A stretch of DNA of 13,680 nucleotides from a virus (taxonomy: Duplodnaviria; Heunggongvirae; Uroviricota; Caudoviricetes): IMG/VR virus record IMGVR_UViG_2706794665_000009; one strand, written 5' to 3'. The translations under genes were made by a program, and so were the position numbers. Numbering within the stretch: the stretch's first letter is position 1; each line of letters opens with the position of its first letter. The notes under the pieces were generated by a model. That model was not told the origin of the DNA. It saw nothing but the letters and a program-made list of their open reading frames with translations, and searched no databases. Below are positions 1,213 to 13,680 of the stretch, one piece after another.

Positions 1213-1806
1213 ATGACACAGACTGAATCAGCGATTCTGGCACATGCCCGGCGGTGTGCGCCTGCGGAGTCGTGCGGCTTCGTGATAAGCACGCCGGAGG
1301 GGGAGCGGTATATCCCTTGTGTGAATATTTCCGCAGAGCCGGAGGCGTATTTTCGTATCGCACCGGAAGACTGGCTGCGGGCAGAGATGCAGGGGGAGAT
1401 TGTGGCACTGGTCCACAGTCATCCCGGTGGGCTGCCCTGGCTGAGCGAGGCTGACCGGCGGCTGCAGATAAAAAGCGCACTGCCCTGGTGGTTGGTCTGC
1501 CGGGGTGACATTCACAAATTCCGCTGTGTGCCACATCTGACAGGACGGCGCTTTGAGCACGGGGTGACGGACTGTTACACGCTGTTCCGGGATGCTTATC
1601 ATCTGGCGGGGACTGAAATGCCGGATTTTCATCGCGAGGATGACTGGTGGCGCAACGGTCAGAACCTTTACCTGGACAATATGGCGGTCACCGGCTTTTA
1701 CCGGGTGCCCCTGTCCTCTGCACAGGCGGGCGATATTCTGCTGTGCTGCTTTGGTGCTTCGGTACCGAACCATGCCGCCATTTACTGCGGCAACGGTGAG
1801 CTGCTT
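1213..1806 (+). CDS. K: Tail tip assembly protein K (JAMM/MPN plus NlpC/P60-like domains); 3' end lost in the N-run
   Basis: ATG at 1213 inside the longer track ORF 952..2058; product starts MTQTESAILAHARRC. Contains the JAMM motif HSHPGG and NlpC/P60-type Cys (GVTDCYTLF) and His (NHAAIY). 198 codons are readable before the gap at 1807. Confidence 0.9.
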
Positions 1807-2055
1807 NNNNNNNNNNNNNNNNNNNNNNNNNNNNNNNNNNNNNNNNNNNNNNNNNNNNNNNNNNNNNNNNNNNNNNNNNNNNNNNNNNNNNNNNNNNNNN
1901 NNNNNNNNNNNNNNNNNNNNNNNNNNNNNNNNNNNNNNNNNNNNNNNNNNNNNNNNNNNNNNNNNNNNNNNNNNNNNNNNNNNNNNNNNNNNNNNNNNNN
2001 NNNNNNNNNNNNNNNNNNNNNNNNNNNNNNNNNNNNNNNNNNNNNNNNNNNNNNN
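1807..2055. other. Unresolved sequence (249 N); should hold the K 3' end and the I 5' end
   Basis: Run of N in the given sequence. Confidence 1.
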
Positions 2056-2536
2056 TGACACGGCACCGGAGGCGGTGTACGCCCGTCTTCACGAACAGCT
2101 GGGTGAGGGAACGGTCATCCACATTGTGCCGCGACTGGCCGGGGCCGGAAAGGGTGGACTGCAGATTGTGCTGGGGGCGGCAGCCATCGTGGGCTCTTTC
2201 TTCACTGCCGGGGCATCAATGGCGTTATGGGGTTCAGCCCTGGCAGCCGGTGGTTTTTCTGCCACCACGATGCTGTTTTCACTTGGAGCCAGCATGATTC
2301 TGGGCGGTGTGGCCCAGATGCTGGCCCCGAAGGCAAAAACACCGGATTACCGCGCAACGGATAACGGCAGACAGAACACGTACTTTTCCTCACTGGATAA
2401 CATGATTGCCCAGGGGAACCCGATGCCGGTGCCTTACGGGGAAATGCTGGTTGGCTCCCGCCGTATATCCCAGGACATCAGCACCCGTGATGAAGGCGGG
2501 GGCGGAAAGGTCGTGGTTATCGGGCGGCAGGGGTAA
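2056..2536 (+). CDS. I: Tail assembly protein I, C-terminal ~160 codons (5' end in the N-run)
   Basis: Frame emerging from the gap reads DTAPEAVYARLHEQLGEGTVIHIVPRLAGAGKGG...VVVIGRQG with stop at 2534-2536; Gly/Ala-rich hydrophobic segment as in lambda gpI. Confidence 0.88.
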
Positions 2537-2540
2537 AAAG

Positions 2541-2582
2541 AATAAAAAAATCCCGCAGTGATCGCGGACAGGAACTGCGGGA
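2541..2582 (-). terminator. Candidate intrinsic terminator on the - strand (9-bp stem, then U7 on the - strand)
   Basis: Arms tcccgcagt (2551-2559) and actgcggga (2574-2582) are exact reverse complements; on the - strand the stem is followed by TTTTTTTATT (complement of 2541-2550). Confidence 0.45.
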
Positions 2583-2640
2583 GAGTTACGAAGATTAAGT
2601 GTAAGGAATTATTCTTATATCACGACAAAAAAATTAACGC
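2545..2640 (-). ncRNA. Candidate small non-coding RNA (~95 nt) in the I-J intergenic insert
   Basis: Bounded by a -10/-35 pair upstream and the hairpin plus U-run downstream on the - strand; no ATG-initiated ORF lies within the predicted transcript. Confidence 0.3.
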
Positions 2641-2646
2641 AGAGAA

Positions 2647-2674
2647 ATTATACGCGCCACAGTCAGTTTGTGAA
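2647..2674 (-). promoter_or_regulatory. Sigma70-like promoter on the - strand (TTCACA, 16-bp spacer, TATAAT)
   Basis: Reverse complement of 2647-2652 is TATAAT, a perfect -10; reverse complement of 2669-2674 is TTCACA, 5/6 to the -35 consensus; spacer 16 bp. Confidence 0.4.
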
Positions 2675-2746
2675 AATGTGAAGATATTCAGAATTTTTAT
2701 GCCATTACCGGTTTTAACCAACAGGATTATCGGTGGGCATGAAAGA

Positions 2747-2776
2747 AAACCCCGGTATCTGCTGATACCGGGGTTT
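2747..2776. repeat. Perfect 13-bp inverted repeat with 4-nt loop (strong hairpin, possible bidirectional terminator or insulator)
   Basis: aaaccccggtatc (2747-2759), loop tgct, gataccggggttt (2764-2776); followed on the + strand by the T-rich ctcttt. Confidence 0.55.
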
Positions 2777-2879
2777 CTCTTTAGCATGGCAGAAATGTGT
2801 TTCATGCTTTTCGGGCGAAGGATATCCGACTTCTGTACGGAATGGCAAGTGGCGGTTAATTTATTCAGGGGAAGGCTGT

Positions 2880-5800
2880 ATGGGAAAAGGTGGCGGTAAG
2901 GCACACACGCCTCGTGAGGCGAAGGATAATCTCAAATCCACGCAGATGATGAGCGTGATTGATGCGATTGGTGAGGGACCGATAGAAGGTCCGGTGAAGG
3001 GACTGCAGAGTATCCTGGTGAACAAAACCCCGCTGACGGACACGGACGGTAATCCCGTGATACACGGTGTGACGGCGGTCTGGCGCGCCGGGGAGCAGGA
3101 GCAGACACCACCGGAAGGCTTTGAGTCCTCCGGTGCTGAAACCGGACTGGGCGTGGAAGTGACGAAGGCAAAACCGGTGACGCGCACCATTACGTCCGCG
3201 AACATTGACCGCCTGCGGGTTACCTTCGGGGTGCAGTCACTGGTGCAGACCACGTCAAAGGGTGACCGAAACCCGACATCCGTCCGCCTGCTGATTCAGT
3301 TACAGCGTAACGGTAACTGGGTGACAGAAAAGGATGTCACCATTAACGGCAAGACCACCTCGCAGTTTCTGGCGTCGGTGATTCTGGATAATCTGCCTCC
3401 CCGTCCTTTTAACATCCGGATGGTCCGGGAGACAGCGGACAGCACCACGGACCAGCTGCAGAATAAGACGCTGTGGTCGTCATACACCGAAATCATCGAT
3501 GTGAAACAGTGCTACCCGAACACGGCCATTGTGGGGCTGTAGGTGGATGCGGAGCAGTTCGGCGGCCAGCAGATGACGGTGAACTACCATATCCGCGGTC
3601 GCATCATCCAGGTGCCGTCAAACTATGACCCGGAAAAACGCACGTACAGTGGTATCTGGGACGGCAGTCTGAAACCGGCATACAGCAACAACCCGGCCTG
3701 GTGCCTGTGGGACATGCTGACTCACCCGCGCTACGGCATGGGAAAACGTCTGGGGGCGGCGGATGTGGACAAGTGGGCGCTGTATGCCATCGGGCAGTAC
3801 TGCGACCAGACGGTCCCGGATGGTTTCGGGGGGACCGAGCCGCGGATGACCTTTAATGCGTACCTGGCACAACAGCGTAAGGCGTGGGACGTTCTCAGTG
3901 ATTTCTGCTCTGCGATGCGCTGTATGCCGGTATGGAACGGTCAGACGCTGACGTTCGTTCAGGACCGCCCGTCGGATGTGGTGTGGCCGTACACCAACAG
4001 CGATGTGGTGGTGGATGATAACGGCGTGGGATTCCGCTACAGCTTCAGTGCCCTGAAGGACCGGCACACGGCGGTGGAGGTGAATTACACCGACCCGCAG
4101 AACGGCTGGCAGACCTCCACGGAACTGGTGGAAGACCCGGAAGCCATACTGCGCTACGGACGCAACCTGCTGAAGATGGACGCGTTCGGCTGTACCAGCC
4201 GCGGTCAGGCCCACCGTGCCGGACTGTGGGTGATAAAGACCGAACTGCTGGAAACGCAGACGGTGGATTTCACGCTCGGGTCTCAGGGGCTGCGGCACAC
4301 ACCCGGTGACATCATTGAAATCTGTGATAACGACTATGCCGGGACCCTGACCGGCGGACGTGTCCTGTCCATTGATGCTGCCACCCGCACCCTGACGCTG
4401 GATCGTGAAGTGACACTTCCGGAGACCGGTGCCGCCACGGTGAACCTGATTAACGGCAGCGGTAAGCCGGTGAGTGTGGACATCACCGAACACCCCGCGC
4501 CGGACCGGATACAGGTCAGTACCCTGCCTGATGGTGTGGAGACATACGGGGTGTGGGGACTCTCCCTGCCGTCACTGCGCCGTCGCCTGTTCCGCTGTGT
4601 CTCCGTCCGGGAAAACACGGACGGCACCTTTGCCATCACGGCGGTGCAGCACGTACCGGAAAAAGAAGCCATCGTGGATAACGGTGCCCGCTTTGAGCCG
4701 CAGTCAGGTTCCCTGAACAGCGTCATCCCACCGGCAGTGCAGCACCTGACGGTGGAGGTGAGCGCAGCTGACGGACAGTATCTGGCGCAGGCGAAATGGG
4801 ACACGCCGCGGGTGGTGAAGGGTGTGCGCTTCAGTCTGCGCCTGACCAGTGGTAAGGGAACGGATGCCAGACTGGTGACCACCGCCATCACCGCAGACAC
4901 GGAGCACCGTTTCAGCGGCCTGCCGCTCGGGGAATACACCCTGACGGTGCGGGCGATAAACAGCTATGGCCAGCAGGGTGAACCTGCCACCACCACATTC
5001 CGGATTGCCGCACCGGCAGCACCGTCGCGGATTGAGCTGACGCCGGGCTATTTTCAGATAACGGCGGTCCCGCGTCTTGCGGTGTATGACCCGACGGTAC
5101 AGTTTGAGTTCTGGTTCTCGGAAAAGCGGATTACCGATATCAGGCAGGTTGAAACCACAGCACGCTATCTTGGCACGGCGCTGTACTGGATAGCCGCCAG
5201 TATCAATATCAAACCGGGCCATGATTATTACTTTTATATCCGCAGTGTGAACACCGTTGGCAAATCGGCATTCGTGGAGGCTGTTGGTCAGCCGAGTGAT
5301 GATGCATCCGGTTATCTGGATTTTTTCAAAGGCGAGATAGGGAAAACCCATCTGGCTCAGGAGCTGTGGACGCAGATTGATAACGGTCAGCTTGCGCCTG
5401 ACCTGGCTGAAATCAGGACGTCCATTACGGATGTCAGCAATGAAATCACGCAGACCGTCAATAAAAAACTGGAAAATCAGAGTGCGGCAATCCAGCAGAT
5501 ACAGAAGGTTCAGGTTGATACAAATAATAATCTGAACAGCATGTGGGCTGTGAAGCTGCAGCAGATGCAGGACGGACGCCTTTATATCGCGGGTATTGGT
5601 GCCGGTATTGAGAACACCCCTGACGGCATGCAGAGTCAGGTGCTGCTGGCGGCAGACAGGATTGCGATGATTAATCCTGCGAATGGCAACACAAAGCCGA
5701 TGTTTGTTGGTCAGGGCGATCAGATATTCATGAACGACGTGTTCCTGAAACGCCTGACGGCTCCCACCATTACCAGCGGCGGTAATCCTCCGGCATTTTC

Positions 5801-6353
5801 CCTGACACCGGACGGAAAACTGACCGCTAAAAATGCAGATATCAGTGGCAGTGTGAATGCGAACGCCGGGACGCTCAACAATGTCACAATTAATGAGAAC
5901 TGTCAGATTAAGGGGAAACTGTCAGCCAACCAGATTGAAGGCGATATAGTCAAAACAGTGGGTAAGGCTTTTCCGCGGGACTCCCGGGCACCGGAGCGGT
6001 GGCCATCAGGGACCATTACCGTCAGGATTTATGACGATCAGCCTTTTGACAGGCAAATTGTTATTCCGGCGGTGGCATTCAGCGGCGCTAAACATGAGCG
6101 GGAGAATAACGATATTTATTCGTCATGCCGCCTGATAGTACGGAAAAACGGTGCTGAAATTTATAACCGTACCGCGCTGGATAATACGCTGATTTACAGT
6201 GGTGTTATTGATATGCCAGCTGGTCGCGGCCACATGACGCTGGAGTTTTCGGTGTCAGCATGGCTGGTGAATAACTGGTATCCCACAGCAAGTATCAGCG
6301 ATTTGCTGGTTGTGGTGATGAAGAAAGCCACCGCAGGCATCAGTATCAGCTGA
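2880..6353 (+). pseudogene. J: Host specificity protein J (central tail fibre / tail tip), full length but interrupted by an in-frame TAG at 3540-3542
   Basis: Track ORFs 2880..3542 (220 aa) and 3543..6353 (936 aa) are in the same frame, separated only by TAG. The combined 1157-codon product matches lambda gpJ end to end as recalled (MGKGGGKAHTPREAKDNLKST... through ...[23 protein letters not shown]... to the C-terminus). SD-like AGGGGAAGG precedes the ATG at 2880. Confidence 0.9.
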
Positions 6354-6370
6354 ATTTTATAACCCATATA

Positions 6371-6397
6371 CGGGCGCCAGAAATGGCGCCTTTTTTA
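6371..6397 (+). terminator. Intrinsic terminator downstream of J
   Basis: GGCGCCA (6372-6378), loop GAAA, TGGCGCC (6383-6389), then TTTTTTATT. Confidence 0.7.
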
Positions 6398-6420
6398 TTG
6401 CAGAAAAGCGAGAGGTAATT

Positions 6421-7020
6421 ATGCGTAAAGTTTGTGCAGCCATTTTGTCCGCAGCCATCTGTCTGTCCGTATCCGGTGCGCCTGCATGGGCGTCTGAACA
6501 TCAGTCCACACTGAGCGCGGGGTATCTTCATGCCCGTACGAACGCTCCCGGCAGCGATAATCTGAACGGGATTAACGTGAAATACCGTTATGAGTTTACG
6601 GACGCGCTGGGGCTGATTACGTCCTTCAGTTATGCCAATGCTGAGGATGAGCAAAAAACGCACTACAGCGATACCCGCTGGCATGAAGATTCTGTGCGTA
6701 ACCGCTGGTTCAGCGTGATGGCGGGGCCGTCTGTACGCGTGAATGAATGGTTCAGCGCGTATGCGATGGTGGGTGTGGCTTACAGCCGTGTGTCGACTTT
6801 CTCCGGGGATTATCTCCGCGTAACTGACAACAAGGGGAAAACGCACGATGTGCTGACCGGAAGTGATGACGGTCGCCACAGCAACACGTCTCTGGCGTGG
6901 GGGGCTGGCGTGCAGTTTAACCCGACCGAATCCGTAACCATTGACCTTGCTTATGAAGGTTCCGGTAGTGGCGACTGGCGAACGGATGCATTTATTGTTG
7001 GTATCGGATACCGTTTCTGA
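6421..7020 (+). CDS. lom: Lom outer-membrane beta-barrel protein (Ail/Lom/PagC/OmpX family), prophage moron
   Basis: 199-aa ORF with a signal-peptide-like N-terminus (MRKVCAAILSAAICLSVSGAPAWA) and a C-terminus ...AYEGSGSGDWRTDAFIVGIGYRF matching lambda Lom as recalled; same position as lambda lom between J and stf; GAGAGG SD upstream. Confidence 0.92.
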   Translation: MRKVCAAILSAAICLSVSGAPAWASEHQSTLSAGYLHARTNAPGSDNLNGINVKYRYEFTDALGLITSFSYANAEDEQKTHYSDTRWHEDSVRNRWFSVMAGPSVRVNEWFSAYAMVGVAYSRVSTFSGDYLRVTDNKGKTHDVLTGSDDGRHSNTSLAWGAGVQFNPTESVTIDLAYEGSGSGDWRTDAFIVGIGYRF

Positions 7021-7123
7021 CAACAGACGCCGATTTATCTTCTGTAAATATTGTTATGATACGCAGGTTCATCCACCTTATGGGGTGAACTGCGTTTGAG
7101 GAAACGTAAAGTTACACTGTCCT

Positions 7124-7158
7124 GAAGCCCGTGGCGTCACTGCTGCGGGCTTTTTTTA
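7124..7158 (+). terminator. Intrinsic terminator downstream of lom
   Basis: agcccg ... cgggct stem followed by TTTTTTTATT (7151-7160). Confidence 0.6.
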
Positions 7159-7171
7159 TTGGTGGAAAAGT

Positions 7172-10100
7172 ATGACAGTAAAAATTTCTGGCGTGCTTAA
7201 AGATGGCACAGGAAAACCAGTACAGAACTGCACCATTGTGCTGAAGGCCAGACGAACCAGCAGCACGGTGGTGGTGAACACGGTGGCCTCTGAAAATCCG
7301 GATGAAGCCGGACGTTACAGCATGGATGTTGAGCATGGTCAGTACAGCGTCACCCTGCTGGTTGAAGGTTTTCCGCCTTCACATGCCGGGACCATTACCG
7401 TCTATGAAGGTTCCAGATCAGGTACGCTGAATGATTTTCTCGGTGCCATGACGGAGGATGATGTCCGACCGGAGGCACTGCGCCGCTTTGAGCAGATGGT
7501 GGAAGAGGTGTCACGTAACGCCTCCGCGGTTGCACAGAATACGGCAGCCGCGAAAAAATCAGCCAGCGATGCCAGTGCATCAGCCAGCGAGGCGGCAACT
7601 CATGCAACCGATGCTGCAGCCTCAGCACGTGCCGCCAGCACGTCAGCCGGACAGGCCGCGTCGTCGGCTCAGTCAGCGTCTTCCAGCGCAGGAACGGCAT
7701 CGACAAAGACCCGTGAAGCAGCAAAAAGTGCTGCTGCTGCAGAGTCATCAAAAAGCGCGGCAGCTACCAGCGCCAGTGCCGCGAAAACGTCAGAAACGAA
7801 TGCCGCAGCATCACAAAAATCGGCAGCCACTTCTGCATCCACAGCGACCACGAAGGCGTCAGAAGCTGCCACCTCGGCACGGGGTGCGGCGGCCTCAAAA
7901 GAGGCAGCGAAATCTTCAGAAACGAATGCATCATCAAGTGCCAGTAGTGCAGCTTCCTCGGCAACGGCGGCAGGAAATTCCGCGAAGGCGGCAAAAACGT
8001 CCGAGACGAACNNNNNNNNNNNNNNNNNNNNNNNNNNNNNNNNNNNNNNNNNNNNNNNNNNNNNNNNNNNNNNNNNNNNNNNNNNNNNNNNNNNNNNNNN
8101 NNNNNNNNNNNNNNNNNNNNNNNNNNNNNNNNNNNNNNNNNNNNNNNNNNNNNNNNNNNNNNNNNNNNNNNNNNNNNNNNNNNNNNNNNNNNNNNNNNNN
8201 NNNNNNNNNNNNNNNNNNNNNNNNNNNNNNNNNNNNNNNNNNNNNNNNNNNNNNNNNNNNNNNNNNNNNNNNNNNNNNNNNNNNNNNNNNNNNNNNNNNN
8301 NNNNNNNNNNNNNNNNNNNNNNNNNNNNNNNNNNNNNNNTGCTTCAAAAGATGAGGCGACCAGACAAGCGTCAGCAGCGAAAGGTAGTGCCACGACAGCA
8401 ACAACGAAAGCATCAGAGGCGGCAGGCAGTGCGACGGCTGCATCTCAGAGCAAAGTTGCTGCTGAATCCGCGGCAACGCGCGCCGAGACAGCAGCAAAAC
8501 GGGCAGAGGATATTGCATCCGCCGTGGCGCTGGAGGATGCGAGCACGACGAAAAAGGGGATAGTACAGCTCAGCAGTGCAACAAACAGCACCAGTGAAAA
8601 GCTGGCGGCAACGCCAAAGGCAGTTAAAACTGTTAAAGATAGTTCAGTTCAAAAAACTGGCGACACAATGGGAGGGCAGTTAAAAATCAGCACGATAAAT
8701 GCTCTTCGAATATTCAACCAAGCCTTTGGCCTTATTTTTAGGCGTTCCGAAGATCATCTTCATCTTATTCCGACTAATGAAGGGGAGGGGGAAAATGGAG
8801 ACATCGGTTCATTAAGACCATTCTCTATAAACTTAAGATCAGGGTTGGTGTCCATCGGTAATGGACTAAAAGTTGGTGGTAGTGTTACTGGTAATTTGAC
8901 CGGAAACGCAGATACTGCGACCAAGATCAAGACAGCACGTAAGATTGGGGGCGTGGCATTTGATGGATCGGCAGATATCAACTTGCCTGGAGTCAACGCT
9001 ACCGGTAATCAAAACACTACAGGTAATGCTGCGACCGCCACGAAACTTCAGGCAGCCAGAACGATTAACGGTGTGTCATTTGATGGTAGTGCAAATATCA
9101 CATTGACCCCTTCAAATATTGGGGCATTGGCATTAACTGGAGGGACTCTTTCAGGTGGTTTAACTGCTGCTGGTGAGGTTATTTCAAGGTCAGCAAATGG
9201 TCTGCGTATTGCCTATGGCAACTATGGATTCTTTATCCGAAATGATGGATCAAACACATATTTTATGTTGACAGATTCGGGTAACAGTCTTGGTACGCAC
9301 AATAGCTTAAGGCCGTTTATAATTAGTAACCATACTGGCAATGTTACAATTGCAACTAAATTAAACGCGAGTGGTGGTATCACTGGATCTTTATCGGGTA
9401 ATGCAAGCACAGCAACCAAATTGCAAACTGCAAGGACAATTAACGGCGTAAAATTTGACGGCTCGGCAAATATTGAAGCGTTTCCGCCAGGTGTTCCGCT
9501 GCCGTGGCCATCAGATACACCACCTGCAGGTTATGCAATCATGCAGGGGCAGACGTTTGATAAGGCAGCATATCCGAAACTGGCTATTGCCTATCCTTCA
9601 GGTGTTATTCCAGATATGCGCGGCTGGACAATCAAGGGCAAACCCGCCAGTGGCCGGGCCGTATTGTCTCAGGAACAGGACGGCATAAAATCGCACACCC
9701 ACAGCGCCAGCGCATCCAGTACGGATTTGGGGACGAAAACCACATCGTCGTTTGATTACGGCACTAAATCCACGAATAACACCGGGGCGCATACGCACAG
9801 TCTGAGTGGCTCTACGGGGTCTGCCGGTGTTCATACTCATGGTAATGGTATTCGTTGGCCAGGAGGCGGCGGTTCTGCGTTAGCATTTTATGATGGCGGT
9901 GGGTTCACTTATGTCCAGAATTCACAGTATCAAGTAAGCCCGGAGACTTCTTCCTATAGATCGTATTATCAACGTATTCAGACACAGTCAGCAGGTGCTC
10001 ATACCCACTCGCTGTCTGGTACTGCAGCAAGTTCTGGCGCACATGCACATACTGTAGGTATTGGTGCGCATACGCACTCCGTTGCGATTGGTTCACATGG

Positions 10101-10185
10101 ACACACCATCACCGTTAACGCTGCGGGTAACGCGGAAAACACCGTCAAAAACATCGCATTTAACTATATTGTGAGGCTTGCATAA
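7172..10185 (+). CDS. stf: Side tail fibre protein Stf; interrupted by an N-run (8012-8339) with a reading-frame change across it
   Basis: N-terminus [28 protein letters not shown]... and the Ala/Ser/Thr-rich repetitive region match lambda Stf as recalled. After the gap the product continues in a different frame (codons from 8341; track ORF 8524..10185) with ...[42 protein letters not shown]..., three tail-fibre repeats (TATKLxxARxIxGVxFDGSAxI) and a His-x-His-rich tip ending ...[22 protein letters not shown]. Confidence 0.88.
8012..8339. other. Unresolved sequence (328 N) inside the repetitive part of stf
   Basis: Run of N; length is not a multiple of 3, and the stf frame differs on either side. 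Confidence 1.
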
Positions 10186-10769
10186 TGGCATTCAGAATGA
10201 GTGAACAAGCACGGACCATAAAAATTTATAATCTGCTGGCCGGAACTAATGAATTTATTGGTGAAGGTGACGCATATATTCCGCCTCATACAGGTCTGCC
10301 AGCAAACAGTACCGATATTGCACCACCAGATATTCCTGCTGGCTTTGTGGCTGTTTTCAACAGTGATGAGGCATCGTGGCATCTCGTTGAAGACCATCGG
10401 GGGAAAACGGTTTATGACGTAGCGTCAGGGGACGAGTTATTTATTTCTGAACTCGGTCCGTTACCGGAAAATGTTACCTGGTTATCGCCGGAAGGGGAGT
10501 TTCAGAAGTGGAACGGCACAGCCTGGGTGAAGGATACGGAAGCAGAAAAACTGTTCCGGATCCGGGAGGCGGAAGAAACAAAAAACAACCTGATGCAGGT
10601 AGCCAGTGAGCATATTGCGCCGCTTCAGGATGCTGCAGATCTGGAAATTGCAACGGAGGAAGAAACCTCATTGCTGGAAGCCTGGAAAAAGTATCGGGTG
10701 TTGCTGAACCGTGTTGATACATCAACTGCACCTGATATTGAGTGGCCTACGAACCCTGTCAGGGAGTAA
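10185..10769 (+). CDS. tfa: Tail fibre assembly protein Tfa
   Basis: 194-aa ORF ([44 protein letters not shown]...) near-identical to lambda Tfa as recalled; start overlaps the stf stop (TAATG). Confidence 0.93.
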
Positions 10770-10818
10770 TCATTGGGATTATGCCGCAGCACGTCTTAAG
10801 CAAGAACGTGCTGCGGTT
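10608..10818 (+). repeat. Direct repeat copy A (~211 bp): tfa 3' end plus ~50 bp downstream including a hairpin
   Basis: Aligns without gaps across the coding part to 11657-11868 at roughly 85-90% identity by eye, with scattered substitutions. Confidence 0.85.
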
Positions 10819-10832
10819 GGATGCTATTTTTT
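10783..10832 (+). terminator. Intrinsic terminator downstream of tfa (11-bp stem plus T-run), convergent with the methyltransferase 3' end
   Basis: ccgcagcacgt (10784-10794), loop cttaagcaaga, acgtgctgcgg (10806-10816), then tggatgcTATTTTTT. Confidence 0.55.
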
Positions 10833-11492
10833 CCCTGAAGCGGAAAACATTACTACAGTACCTTGAACCTTGGTTTTAACATTCTCGAAATGCTCTGAGA
10901 GTATATGTGTTAAGCCTTCTTCGGAATCTTTTGTGTTTGAAAAGATGCCTTTCTGATTGTAAATGCGCATCAGTTTTTGACCGAAGCTATTGTGCACAAC
11001 TCCATCGCCAAGAATTGTGGCTCCGTATAGAGTTCCATCGTCAGTTAAGGCCTGCGCCGCATTGCGTATTACACAGCTTTTTGTAGATATATTTCCAGGC
11101 AGGCAGTGAAGAAGGTAAAACATGGAAATGGAATCAAATTGACCATGTAACGCCGCGGGATAAGGTTCAAAAACATCATGGCTAATTTTATGTTTAATTT
11201 TTGATTCCCCAGCCCTTGTAGATGCCGCGTTCAGGCTAGCTTCGTTCAAATCCATTAAAGATATCAGACTACTCTCAGGTACGTGAGTAAGGTAAAACCC
11301 AGTTCCAACACCAATATCCAGATGGTTGTTACCTAAATGTTCCAGAAAGTGTGGAAGAAGGTGTTCCTTTGTAGGACATCCCCATGCAAGCCGATTTGAT
11401 ACTCCCAAAACCCACCAGTCATAAAGCTTTAGGGTAAGTGGTGTGTAAATTTTAGCCCCATCATCTGTGTTTTTTTTCATTGATTTCACCAT
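10824..11492 (-). CDS. Class I (Rossmann-fold) SAM-dependent methyltransferase, substrate unknown; AT-rich moron
   Basis: 222-aa ORF on the - strand with motif I (HLDIGVGTGFY), a downstream acidic motif (LISLMDLNEA) and motif II-like FDSISMFYLLHCLP. No DPPY/NPPY or PCQ motif, so not an obvious DNA methyltransferase. Visibly more AT-rich than the flanking tail genes. A second ATG at 11480 (MKKNTDDG...) has a better SD-like GGTGA and may be the true start. Confidence 0.8.
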   Translation of the reverse strand: MVKSMKKNTDDGAKIYTPLTLKLYDWWVLGVSNRLAWGCPTKEHLLPHFLEHLGNNHLDIGVGTGFYLTHVPESSLISLMDLNEASLNAASTRAGESKIKHKISHDVFEPYPAALHGQFDSISMFYLLHCLPGNISTKSCVIRNAAQALTDDGTLYGATILGDGVVHNSFGQKLMRIYNQKGIFSNTKDSEEGLTHILSEHFENVKTKVQGTVVMFSASGKK

Positions 11493-11548
11493 GTTATAGT
11501 TTTATTTGTGAATTAAATCAATTATGGCGATGAATTACAAGGGGTTAA

Positions 11549-11818
11549 ATGCTGCCGCAGCATAGCGATATTGAAATAGCCTGGTATGCTTCGATACAGC
11601 AGGAGCCGAATGGCTGGAAGACCGTCACCACACAGTTCTACATCCAGGAATTCAGTGAGTATATTGCGCCACTGCAGGATGCAGTAGATCTGGAAATCGC
11701 AACGGAGGAAGAAAGATCGTTGCTGGAGGCATGGAATAAATATCGGGTATTGTTGAATCGTGTTGATACATCAACTGCACCTGATATTGAGTGGCCTGCA
11801 AATCCTGTCAGGGAGTAA
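11549..11818 (+). CDS. Tfa-like C-terminal domain ORF (89 aa), probably a remnant of a second tfa allele
   Basis: C-terminal 55 aa (...[53 protein letters not shown]) are homologous to the Tfa C-terminus at 10605-10769; the N-terminal 34 aa are unrelated to the Tfa N-terminus. Confidence 0.5.
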
Positions 11819-11868
11819 TCATTGGGATTATGCCGCAGATACGTCGTATGCAGGAACGTGCTGCGGTT
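11657..11868 (+). repeat. Direct repeat copy B (~212 bp), partner of 10608-10818
   Basis: Same as copy A; homology ends at ...gaacgtgctgcggtt in both copies. Confidence 0.85.
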
Positions 11869-11932
11869 AGTTTGTGAGCTTTCGATAGTGGTTGTTATTT
11901 TTGCCCTTATTTGTTCCGGAGGCCATGGTTCA

Positions 11933-12103
11933 ATGGTCCGTCTGCCCCCTGTGGTGATGTCAGCAAAATCAGCCACTGCGCGAACCACAATAGCCCGGGA
12001 AGATGCTGAAGATCACCAGGTAAAGCTGTCAGCGCAGAAACTGGAAGAACTGCTCGCATCAATGGTTAAGGATGAGGTTGATCGCAATGATGGGATTTAT
12101 TGA
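11933..12103 (+). CDS. Hypothetical small protein (56 aa), low confidence
   Basis: ATG at 11933 (MVRLPPVVMSAKSATARTTIAREDAEDHQVKLSAQKLEELLASMVKDEVDRNDGIY) with GGAGG 10 nt upstream; the same frame stays open for 29 more codons after the TGA at 12101-12103, ending at TAA 12191-12193. No recognisable family. Confidence 0.2.
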   Translation: MVRLPPVVMSAKSATARTTIAREDAEDHQVKLSAQKLEELLASMVKDEVDRNDGIY

Positions 12104-12229
12104 CGTCAGCGAGAGCAGAAGGAAGAACTGAATAACCTGAATGATTTACGCTCAATCAGAGCGATGGCGATTAGCGGCAATCACGCTCGATAAAATTAAC
12201 CTCGGTGATCATCCGGGGTTTTGCATTCA

Positions 12230-12459
12230 TTAAAACCGCATCAACCTTTCCACCAATTGTTCTTTACGGGCAACGATCCACCCATGTTGCTCCAGATAAA
12301 ATTTAAACCGTTCCAGAGTGCATACCATCGCATCGGCGGGGACTTTTTCTGTGAACTCGACCTGACCGTGTTTATCGAAGTGGATCAGTAATGCGCATCC
12401 ATTATTTGGGGCGGGGGAGTTTTGTGCTGCAGGAGGACGTTTGTGGAGTTCTTCTTCCA
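12230..12459 (-). CDS. C-terminal ORF fragment on the - strand emerging from the N-run; possibly the 3' part of the Rha-like gene
   Basis: Open frame ...IHFDKHGQVEFTEKVPADAMVCTLERFKFYLEQHGWIVARKEQLVERLMRF with stop (complement of 12230-12232). It is in a different frame from the Rha-like 5' part if the gap is exactly 270 nt. Confidence 0.3.
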
Positions 12460-12729
12460 NNNNNNNNNNNNNNNNNNNNNNNNNNNNNNNNNNNNNNNNN
12501 NNNNNNNNNNNNNNNNNNNNNNNNNNNNNNNNNNNNNNNNNNNNNNNNNNNNNNNNNNNNNNNNNNNNNNNNNNNNNNNNNNNNNNNNNNNNNNNNNNNN
12601 NNNNNNNNNNNNNNNNNNNNNNNNNNNNNNNNNNNNNNNNNNNNNNNNNNNNNNNNNNNNNNNNNNNNNNNNNNNNNNNNNNNNNNNNNNNNNNNNNNNN
12701 NNNNNNNNNNNNNNNNNNNNNNNNNNNNN
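12460..12729. other. Unresolved sequence (270 N) inside the Rha-like gene region
   Basis: Run of N. Confidence 1.
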
Positions 12730-13007
12730 CCAGTAAATCCCATTACGAGGAACATGAAGCCGTCTTTTGTGATCAGGTAGCATCGTGATTCACGTTCTGC
12801 GCCGTTGCCAATTTCGACAGTCTGAACATCGGCCGAAAAGTTGGCTGATGTAAATTCGGGAGAGCAGTCGAGTGTGTCAATCTTAGCTAAAACGTGTTTA
12901 TGTTGTTTATCGAAGTAGTCGGCAACAGCTTGAGAGGTGGTAACCAGGCGACCATCTTTGAAAAAGACTTTTGGTGACTCGTTAGAAAAAGTTATAGCTG
13001 TATTCAT
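12730..13007 (-). CDS. Phage regulatory protein, Rha family (antirepressor-like), N-terminal part; 3' end in the N-run
   Basis: ATG at 13007 (- strand) preceded by GGAG with 9-nt spacing; product MNTAITFSNESPKVFFKDGRLVTTSQAVADYFDKQHKHVLAKIDTL...CYLITKDGFMFLVMGFT resembles the Rha/pRha N-terminal domain as I remember it. Confidence 0.6.
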
Positions 13008-13032
13008 ATGTGATGACTCCAATTAATTGGAT

Positions 13033-13066
13033 GATCACCACCTCTGACGCCAATCAGGGAGGTGGT
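13033..13066. repeat. 10-bp perfect inverted repeat with 14-nt spacer, 26 bp upstream of the Rha-like start (candidate operator or 5' UTR hairpin)
   Basis: tcaccacctc (13033-13042) and gaggtggtga (13057-13066) are exact reverse complements. Confidence 0.45.
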
Positions 13067-13582
13067 GAGACGTACAGGGTTGGCGTAACCGGTCATCACA
13101 AAACCCGGCGCGGATTTCTCCGCCCCTGCACGCCCCACCATAATGCGAATGTGGCAATGCTTAACGCAAAAAAAACCGCAAACGCGGCTATGCGTTGTGA
13201 TGTTATCCGAGACGCCAATCCCGACAACCGATTTTGCGGTTGTGTGAGGAATATAGCCCCGGAGAACAAAAACTGTCAACGGGCAAAAAAATTTCCGTTA
13301 TCAGGAATGTATAAAATTAAAGCGATCGAGCAAAAAATCCTTTCTGCAAAACTAAAAAAGATTTCAATAAAATCAGGCAGTTAAAAACACGGAAAACGGT
13401 ATAAAAAAGCGCCTCAAAATCCTGTTTTTTCTTTCAGATACAATGTCTTATTGCATTTTTTAAAACATGTCAGTGTGGTACATGGATATCGATACCATCG
13501 CCAATTATAAACTGGGCGGTGCACAGCAACATGATAGCGTACGCCTCGATCCGTGGGTGTTTATGTTCTCAGCAGGATATCG

Positions 13583-13680
13583 GGTAATGACTCCAACTTA
13601 TTGATAGTGTTTTATGTTCAGATAATGCCCGATGACTTTGTCATGCAGCTCCACCGATTTTGAGAACGACAGCGACTTCC
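13583..13680 (-). mobile_element. IS1 insertion sequence, terminal 98 bp (right end, inverted orientation); remainder lies beyond the window
   Basis: From 13583 the + strand reads GGTAATGACTCCAACTTATTGATAGTGTTTTATG..., the reverse complement of the IS1 right terminal inverted repeat as recalled; the - strand encodes the InsB C-terminus. Confidence 0.9.
13598..13680 (-). CDS. insB: IS1 transposase InsB, C-terminal fragment (5' part outside the window)
   Basis: - strand translation ...KSLSFSKSVELHDKVIGHYLNIKHYQ with stop (complement of 13598-13600), matching the InsB C-terminus as recalled. Confidence 0.85.
   Translation of the reverse strand, partial: KSLSFSKSVELHDKVIGHYLNIKHYQ

Follow-up and report, generated by a model that had tools for sequence, protein, structure and literature searches.

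A 13,680-nucleotide (nt) stretch of tailed-phage DNA (Caudoviricetes; IMG/VR record IMGVR_UViG_2706794665_000009), hereafter the window, carries an intact ybcY/tfaX cargo cassette, in which a methyltransferase gene lies between two diverged copies of the 3' end of the tail-fibre assembly gene tfa (Table 1). The arrangement itself is ordinary and already annotated, including in the K-12 reference; new here are the mapping of nearly all cassette junctions to one 39-nt block within tfa and the identification of natural empty sites. As an account of the whole region, we consider it likely that this is a moron cassette in a lambda-like prophage at ompW, gained and lost via tfa homology, with a methyltransferase acting on a small molecule or lipid.

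Diverged tfa ends and a recurrent junction block

The direct repeat is real and far above chance. A repeat search paired 10593-10789 with 11642-11838 (197 nt, 88%) and 10791-10818 with 11841-11868 (28 nt, 89%), blastn paired 10604-10818 with 11653-11868 (216 nt, 88.9-89.8% identity), and an in-register count gave 192 identical positions of 216 and one 1-nt indel at 10789/10790. The coordinates in the initial annotation, 10608-10818 and 11657-11868, were thus correct within 5 nt. The homology takes in the final 55 codons of tfa and extends 49 nt past the stop through a hairpin that is present in each repeat (10783-10817 in copy A and 11832-11867 in copy B). The 39-nt block encodes part of the C-terminal region that can be aligned across the Tfa proteins of P2, P1, Mu, and lambda; a second long block of identity between the copies spans 35 nt (10755-10789).

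We searched for empty sites with the predicted deletion product as a query and then with a 617-nt probe that reaches 80% coverage only where no cassette interrupts the match. NMBU-W13E19 and EC15 gave an uninterrupted match to the predicted deletion product; both carry the same prophage at ompW, with J, lom, stf, a single tfa, the DUF4376 remnant, Rha, and ash, and the methyltransferase is absent. The 617-nt probe found the empty site in 20 genomes, where tfa of the same ompW prophage runs straight into the DUF4376 flank, and the cassette occurs in the same flank context in approximately 360 genomes. The initial annotation had looked to related prophages with a single tfa as the telling comparison; such prophages exist, and the gene order is not universal.

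Using 27 sites that distinguish copy A from copy B, we scored the junctions of seven empty-site alleles. In all seven, the sequence as far as 10709 was A-like or generic and that from 10749 onward was B-type, placing the switch between 10709 and 10749, while the identity of their tfa heads to the window ranged from 356/418 to 417/418. Wherever a left copy accompanies the cassette (in 2G7b, ev243, and K-12), its tail (from 10749) is of the A type, right copies without exception carry the B-specific head (single-nucleotide polymorphisms, SNPs, at 11652-11758), and the copy B tail from 11798, together with the flank, is of the type found directly after tfa in the empty-site prophages. On its right side the cassette ends at 11773 in O157, 2G7b, and ev243 or, in K-12, at 11795; the tfa of O157 parts from the window sequence at 10748, where the 39-nt block ends. 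Nearly all junctions lie within or at the edge of this block (10710-10748 = 11759-11797); the left edges outside it, 10649 in 2G7b and ev243, 10778 in O157, and 10331 in K-12, are separate truncations. Because the junctions and the linkage of A- and B-type tails and heads fall in this way, the copy-A head and the copy-B tail of the window look like one resident tfa that has been split, with the A tail, the methyltransferase, and the B head as the insert.

The core of the cassette is shared with phages and prophages of other build. By blastn, the prophage of O157 TB21-1 matches the window over 10778-11773 at 99.0%, 2G7b over 10649-11773 at 99.0%, and ev243 over 10649-11773 at 98.6%; 2G7b and ev243 have no intact tfa before the cassette and their tail-fibre genes are of another type. 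The methyltransferase genes are 1-2 nt apart across O157, 2G7b, and ev243, while the two tfa copies of the window differ at 24 of 216 positions (11%). A core that is near-identical in unrelated contexts, with tfa copies that differ more, fits a recent horizontal spread of the cassette. In the O157:H7 TB21-1 prophage (1337-3550 of the extracted locus), tfa and the hairpin-methyltransferase unit are separated by a second cargo block, which encodes a manganese catalase, two ferritin-like proteins, and a general stress protein.

The presence and absence of the cassette in otherwise identical prophages, the approximately 99% identical core behind unrelated tail-fibre modules, and the single junction block support gain and loss by homologous recombination within tfa, as had been proposed from the letters of the window alone. 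The accompanying suggestion that the methyltransferase is cargo and not tail machinery holds as well. Mechanistically, the conserved 3' end of tfa would act as homology arms: a phage would gain the cassette by homologous exchange with a co-resident lambdoid phage, carried out by RecA of the host or by phage functions of the Red/RecET type, and would lose it when copies A and B recombine. On either path, a functional tfa would stay intact.

Table 1. Coordinates of features in and around the cassette (positions in the window)
Feature	Position	Strand	Basis or description
tfa, intact tail-fibre assembly gene, 194 residues	10185-10769	+	one-base overlap with the stf stop codon
Direct repeat copy A	10603-10818	+	last 55 tfa codons and 49 nt downstream; 192/216 identical to copy B
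Direct repeat copy B	11652-11868	+	repeat search, blastn, SNP table
39-nt identity block, copy A	10710-10748	+	longest run identical between the copies; recurrent mosaic junction
39-nt identity block, copy B instance	11759-11797	+	in-register comparison
Portable cassette core (hairpin, methyltransferase, spacer, tfaX head)	10778-11773		blastn, 98.6-99.0% in unrelated lambdoid phages/prophages
Strong hairpin between convergent tfa and methyltransferase genes	10783-10817		minimum free energy, conservation
Class I methyltransferase dependent on S-adenosylmethionine (SAM), intact K-12 ybcY ortholog	10824-11492	-	222-residue open reading frame (ORF); Pfam, PHROG, RefSeq annotation
Divergent spacer, 56 nt, 27% GC, promoter-like sites for the methyltransferase	11493-11548		GC content, consensus scan
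tfaX-type ORF, 89 residues	11549-11818	+	approximately 30 unrelated N-terminal codons joined to the last ~56-60 Tfa residues
DUF4376/tail-fibre-related gene remnant	11915-12193	+	RefSeq pseudogene: internal stop, no N-terminus

The methyltransferase and its predicted expression signals

The class I SAM-binding fold that the initial annotation had read from the sequence is supported by profiles and by structure prediction. The protein passes the Pfam gathering thresholds of Methyltransf_12 (37.6 bits, cutoff 30), Methyltransf_23 (28.8, cutoff 27), Methyltransf_25 (27.7, cutoff 27), and Methyltransf_11 (24.6, cutoff 21.2), and its AlphaFold model (predicted local distance difference test score, pLDDT, 90.7) has the alternating beta/alpha fold with a seven-stranded sheet. 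Among 32 homologs of 56-90% identity, 58 columns are invariant, including motif I, D59-I-G-V-G-T-G65, and the acidic D81 at the end of strand 2. Met5 at 11480 (218 residues), four codons after the annotated 11492, is probably the true start, because nearly all homologs begin there and phrog_2132 ("unknown function", E=8e-157) aligns residues 5-222 to its positions 1-218; GGTGA precedes this codon.

Foldseek gave PmtA (8ys9), JHAMT (7ec0), PfPMT, and SgvM as the best matches, and profile comparison against the Protein Data Bank gave JHAMT (1.3e-5) and UbiG (7e-4) as the only sequence-level relatives with solved structures. Compared with JHAMT 7ec0, UbiG 4kdr, the bacterial phosphatidylethanolamine N-methyltransferase PmtA 8ys9, and the phosphoethanolamine methyltransferase 3uj7, the window enzyme is 13-21% identical with a template modelling (TM) score of approximately 0.6; no one family of small-molecule or lipid methyltransferases stands out, and their family-specific catalytic residues cannot be matched to it. 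NCBIfam gave sub-threshold matches alone (CpaM and RquA, 17 bits against cutoffs of 175-180). The 222-residue sequence contains no DNA-methyltransferase motif of the type (D/N/S)PP(Y/F/W) or PCQ with ENV, and no DNA-methylase Pfam family matched at E<=0.01; there is no target-recognition domain, the protein being a bare 218-residue catalytic domain. Motif scan and Pfam thus agree with the earlier remark that DNA-methyltransferase motifs are lacking. As modelled, the enzyme resembles small-molecule and lipid methyltransferases and not DNA methyltransferases, and it would methylate a small molecule or lipid rather than DNA.

The homologs stand as single orphan genes, no partner gene being conserved beside them, in mobile or chromosomal islets of Enterobacterales. 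The neighbourhood of the methyltransferase includes an alpha/beta-hydrolase or carboxylesterase gene in Erwinia, Enterobacter, and the 2G7b, ev243, and O157 prophages. Since the hydrolases are mutually unrelated (BLASTP E=0.87, 0.005), we rejected an esterase partner as coincidence. Membership in an anti-phage defence system was likewise rejected, PADLOC giving a marginal mad2 match only (E=0.003, 14.4 bits). The ratio of nonsynonymous to synonymous substitution rates of the methyltransferase, 0.14-0.28, rests on too few substitutions to decide on selection. No functional study of the ybcY/tfaX methyltransferase was found in the literature library searched; deletion of ybcY had no effect in an Hha-toxicity screen (PMC2408971).

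The region had been described as AT-rich, which is true of the spacer (27% GC), whereas the gene itself is moderately so (41%, against 48% in tfa and 52% in the window). On the - strand of the spacer, a consensus scan found TTAACC-16-CATAAT, and reading of the sequence TTGATT-17-TATAAC; promoter-like sites were no more numerous in the scan than in shuffles, and both are to be taken as predicted sites. TTGATT/TATAAC is the hexamer pair given for ybcY in a genomic SELEX (systematic evolution of ligands by exponential enrichment) study in K-12, which recorded binding of both RpoD holoenzyme and H-NS to the orthologous spacer between ybcY and tfaX (PMC3946193). Transcription of the methyltransferase would start at a sigma-70 promoter of its own and run counter to the late operon; it would probably take place in the lysogen, under the influence of H-NS.

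The hairpin downstream of tfa has a minimum free energy of -29.9 kcal/mol (z=-3.3) on the + strand and -27.2 kcal/mol (z=-4.6) on the - strand, and it is kept after lambda tfa with a compensatory change of an A-U to a C-G pair. In O157, UUUAAUUUUU, a U-tract, comes directly after it on the methyltransferase strand, while the window hairpin has no adjacent U-tract; a terminator scan did not call the copy A hairpin as a canonical terminator and called only a short partial stem in copy B. It is probably a two-way terminator or an RNA-end stabiliser for both convergent transcripts. RefSeq places a 45-residue ORF across the hairpin and the 3' end of the methyltransferase (10742-10879), named "hypothetical protein" and, in K-12-type genomes, "nucleocapsid protein"; this looks like a spurious call.

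Competing histories and functions

Within the account of gain and loss through tfa, gain in the lineage of the window is somewhat favoured over loss: a wide variety of tfa heads is found joined to the B-type tail and flank, and no crossover was seen in the 35-nt block. The other history takes the window arrangement as the original state of the ompW prophage and derives all 20 single-tfa prophages from it by deletion, through recombination between copies A and B; it is the less likely one and yet deserves serious weight. The alleles of NMBU-W13E19 and 190693, with heads 417/418 identical to the window tfa, are exact chimeras of an A head and a B tail that switch in the longest block of identity; these two prophages could equally be revertants. 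In the same direction point the approximately 360 cassette-bearing genomes against 20 empty ones in this flank context, and the complete tfa tail of the window tfaX as opposed to the 3'-truncated copies of the DLP12 type. However, the empty alleles bear at least seven tfa heads (356-417/418) and yet share one B-type tail, no crossover was seen in 10755-10789, and a core near-identical in unrelated phages means that at least some gains occurred by transfer. The same A-type tail and B-type head accompany the methyltransferase in 2G7b and ev243, which lack an adjacent intact tfa, and the B-type tail occurs alone in empty sites; together with the 24 differences in 216 positions, this makes it very improbable that the 3' end of tfa was duplicated in tandem in place and the methyltransferase inserted separately with no exchange between phages, even if the shared orientation and reading frame of the repeats are what such a duplication would leave. 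A site-specific tail-fibre switch of the invertase type, as in Mu Gin, P1 Cin, and e14 Pin, is brought to mind by a duplicated tfa downstream of stf that resembles the alternative tfa genes of invertible segments. We give it almost no credence: the repeats are direct, the repeat search found no inverted repeats in 9000-13680, no gix- or cix-like site was found within three mismatches, and no invertase is annotated between J and ompW', so that this switch was excluded.

The intact tfa upstream matches Caudo_TAP (PF02413, E=1.9e-44) over profile positions 1-130 of 131 and phrog_105 at E=9e-101, and its DNA is 94% identical to lambda tfa (orf-194). The tfaX-type ORF covers positions 75-130 of the same profile and does not match it over the full length, in keeping with the initial description of copy B as a truncated tfa-like ORF, since only the last 56 positions of the Tfa profile are matched. 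It is most likely a remnant. We think it quite unlikely that the 89-residue ORF is a working gene that forms a divergent pair with the methyltransferase and is selected together with it, for instance by encoding a short chaperone of the Tfa type or a factor that modulates fibre assembly. For such a gene speak a full-length match to phrog_2341, the exact 89-residue sequence on at least 1,000 contigs, the binding of RpoD holoenzyme to the K-12 spacer (PMC3946193), and a macroarray in which tfaX was 2.55-fold up in mixed biofilm (PMC3646849). Yet RefSeq labels the ORF as a pseudogene without N-terminus, a stop codon interrupts it in K-12 and 7 nt are deleted from it in 2G7b, its 3' ends differ among O157, 2G7b, and ev243, in LF82 it is truncated with the first ~30 nt kept, and many members of its cluster are fragments of 37-52 residues. 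Moreover, Tfa proteins of phages outside the cassette align to it only from residue 27-39 on, leaving the first ~30 residues without a counterpart. Similarly doubtful is a methyltransferase acting on nucleic acid (tRNA, rRNA, or DNA), for instance in anti-restriction or in the tuning of translation: against this stand the missing DNA-methyltransferase families, amino- and C5-methyltransferase motifs, and target-recognition domain of the bare catalytic domain, the restriction of sequence-level relatives with solved structures to JHAMT and UbiG, and the position of the chromosomal homologs, which are not beside translation or restriction-modification genes. Going further than the small-molecule or lipid reading that we prefer, the YbcY-family enzyme might be a selectively kept lysogenic-conversion function, self-sufficient and methylating a ubiquitous enterobacterial envelope lipid or metabolite by PmtA-, JHAMT-, or UbiG-like chemistry, which would alter surface or stress properties, while the tfa-derived arms would make the cassette mobile among lambdoid phages by short-homology recombination. 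We regard this as speculative and, on balance, unlikely; if true, it would explain why 70% of E. coli genomes carry an intact methyltransferase gene at >=95% DNA identity (in most records >=99%), and also why the gene is intact in prophage stumps such as that of LF82 (int'-tfa'-methyltransferase-ompT).

Prophage setting, prevalence, and related systems

The window is the tail region of a lambda-like prophage in the order J, lom, stf, tfa, and cargo. The nearest genome is that of E. coli LR-58-2, where the prophage sits at ompW, adjoining yciE and trpA. Identity to LR-58-2 rises from 95.7% over 4113-8011 to 99.8% over 8340-12459, the change falling across a masked stretch inside stf, which points to a further mosaic joint within this side tail fibre gene. 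Three runs of N are masked (1807-2055, 8012-8339, and 12460-12729); the last is 270 nt long where LR-58-2 has just 50 nt, and the gene of the Rha-family regulator probably differs from that of LR-58-2 by ~220 unreadable nt. The DUF4376 remnant forms the right flank in cassette-bearing and empty-site prophages alike, and an ORF overlapping it (11822-12103) matches phrog_1141, "tail fiber protein", at E=7e-10. Several empty-site prophages (190693, PigCaeca_2, strain 10, and ECE228) also lack Rha and ash, and their DUF4376 remnant almost abuts ompW'; the right end of the prophage shows further presence/absence variation. Homology to LR-58-2 ends at 13582, within the ompW' remnant that marks this right end, and 13584-13680 is an IS1 end, matching at 100% the IS1 of more than 5,000 plasmids; therefore, IS1 has inserted in the ompW' remnant in the genome of the window. 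Where the Rha-family gene meets ash, the 20-nt sequence GTGATGACTCCAATTAATTG (13010-13029) has 85% similarity to the terminal repeat of IS1 at 13584-13603 and may be a chance match or a relic IS1 end.

The same module is present in K-12, a derivative of which matches 10331-11795 at 96.9% over 1,465 nt (blastn) with the gene order terminase fragment, tfa fragment, frameshifted methyltransferase, tfa fragment with an internal stop, appY, and ompT. This locus we take to be the DLP12 genes tfaD, ybcY, and tfaX, names that papers use for the K-12 spot. Sequence and gene order both establish orthology to the DLP12 ybcY/tfaX module: order, orientation, hairpin, spacer, and truncated tfa are the same. 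However, in K-12 all three genes are pseudogenes (tfa 5'-truncated, the methyltransferase frameshifted, tfaX with an internal stop) and the homology stops at 11795, whereas the window has an intact tfa and methyltransferase, a tfaX with the full tail, and a lambda-like prophage at ompW as the host element. In LF82, the DLP12-type prophage is cut down to an integrase fragment, a tfa fragment, an intact methyltransferase, and ompT (3393-6283 of the extracted locus), and several uropathogenic strains share the ompT-ybcY context (bioRxiv 10.1101/594564). Of 5,426 complete E. coli genomes, 3,799 have the methyltransferase gene at >=95% identity, in as many as four copies, which places it among the commonest E. 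coli prophage cargo genes; the full tfa-methyltransferase-tfa' arrangement is present in 763 genomes. Isolated phages with the cassette gene are PhiR26_1, PhiR30_1, PhiR29_1/2, 2G7b, ev243, and 204576, some of them plaque-forming (PhiR26_1, PhiR30_1, PhiR29_1/2, 2G7b, and ev243).

From the 3' end of stf through tfa to the hairpin after the stop (10087-10818), the window is 94% identical in DNA to the stf-tfa region of phage lambda (orf-314, orf-194), but lambda has a single tfa and no methyltransferase, and its b region (ea47) follows the hairpin. Lambdoid morons were reportedly described by Juhala et al. in 2000, with lambda lom and bor as examples. The cassette is like them in lying between neighbours that are adjacent in relatives (the 20 empty-site genomes and the single tfa of lambda), in a base composition that differs from the surroundings (gene 41% and spacer 27% against tfa 48% and window 52%), and in having a predicted promoter-like region, a hairpin, and transcription opposite to the late operon. 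It differs in being flanked by diverged repeats of a neighbouring structural gene, which give ready homology for transfer and loss. With the invertible tail-fibre segments of Mu (G), P1 (C), and e14/Rac (Pin), it shares the feature that the side tail fibre gene is followed by two or more sequences derived from tfa, but the repeats of the window are direct, with no invertase and no crossover site.

While the arrangement itself is ordinary prophage mosaicism, the locus is a clean natural case of a conserved structural-gene motif serving as a recurrent recombination joint, where the 39-nt block permits gain and loss of cargo without harm to the tail-fibre chaperone. As the methyltransferase is intact in approximately 70% of complete E. 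coli genomes, knowing its substrate would fill a gap in annotation that, though small, is very widespread.

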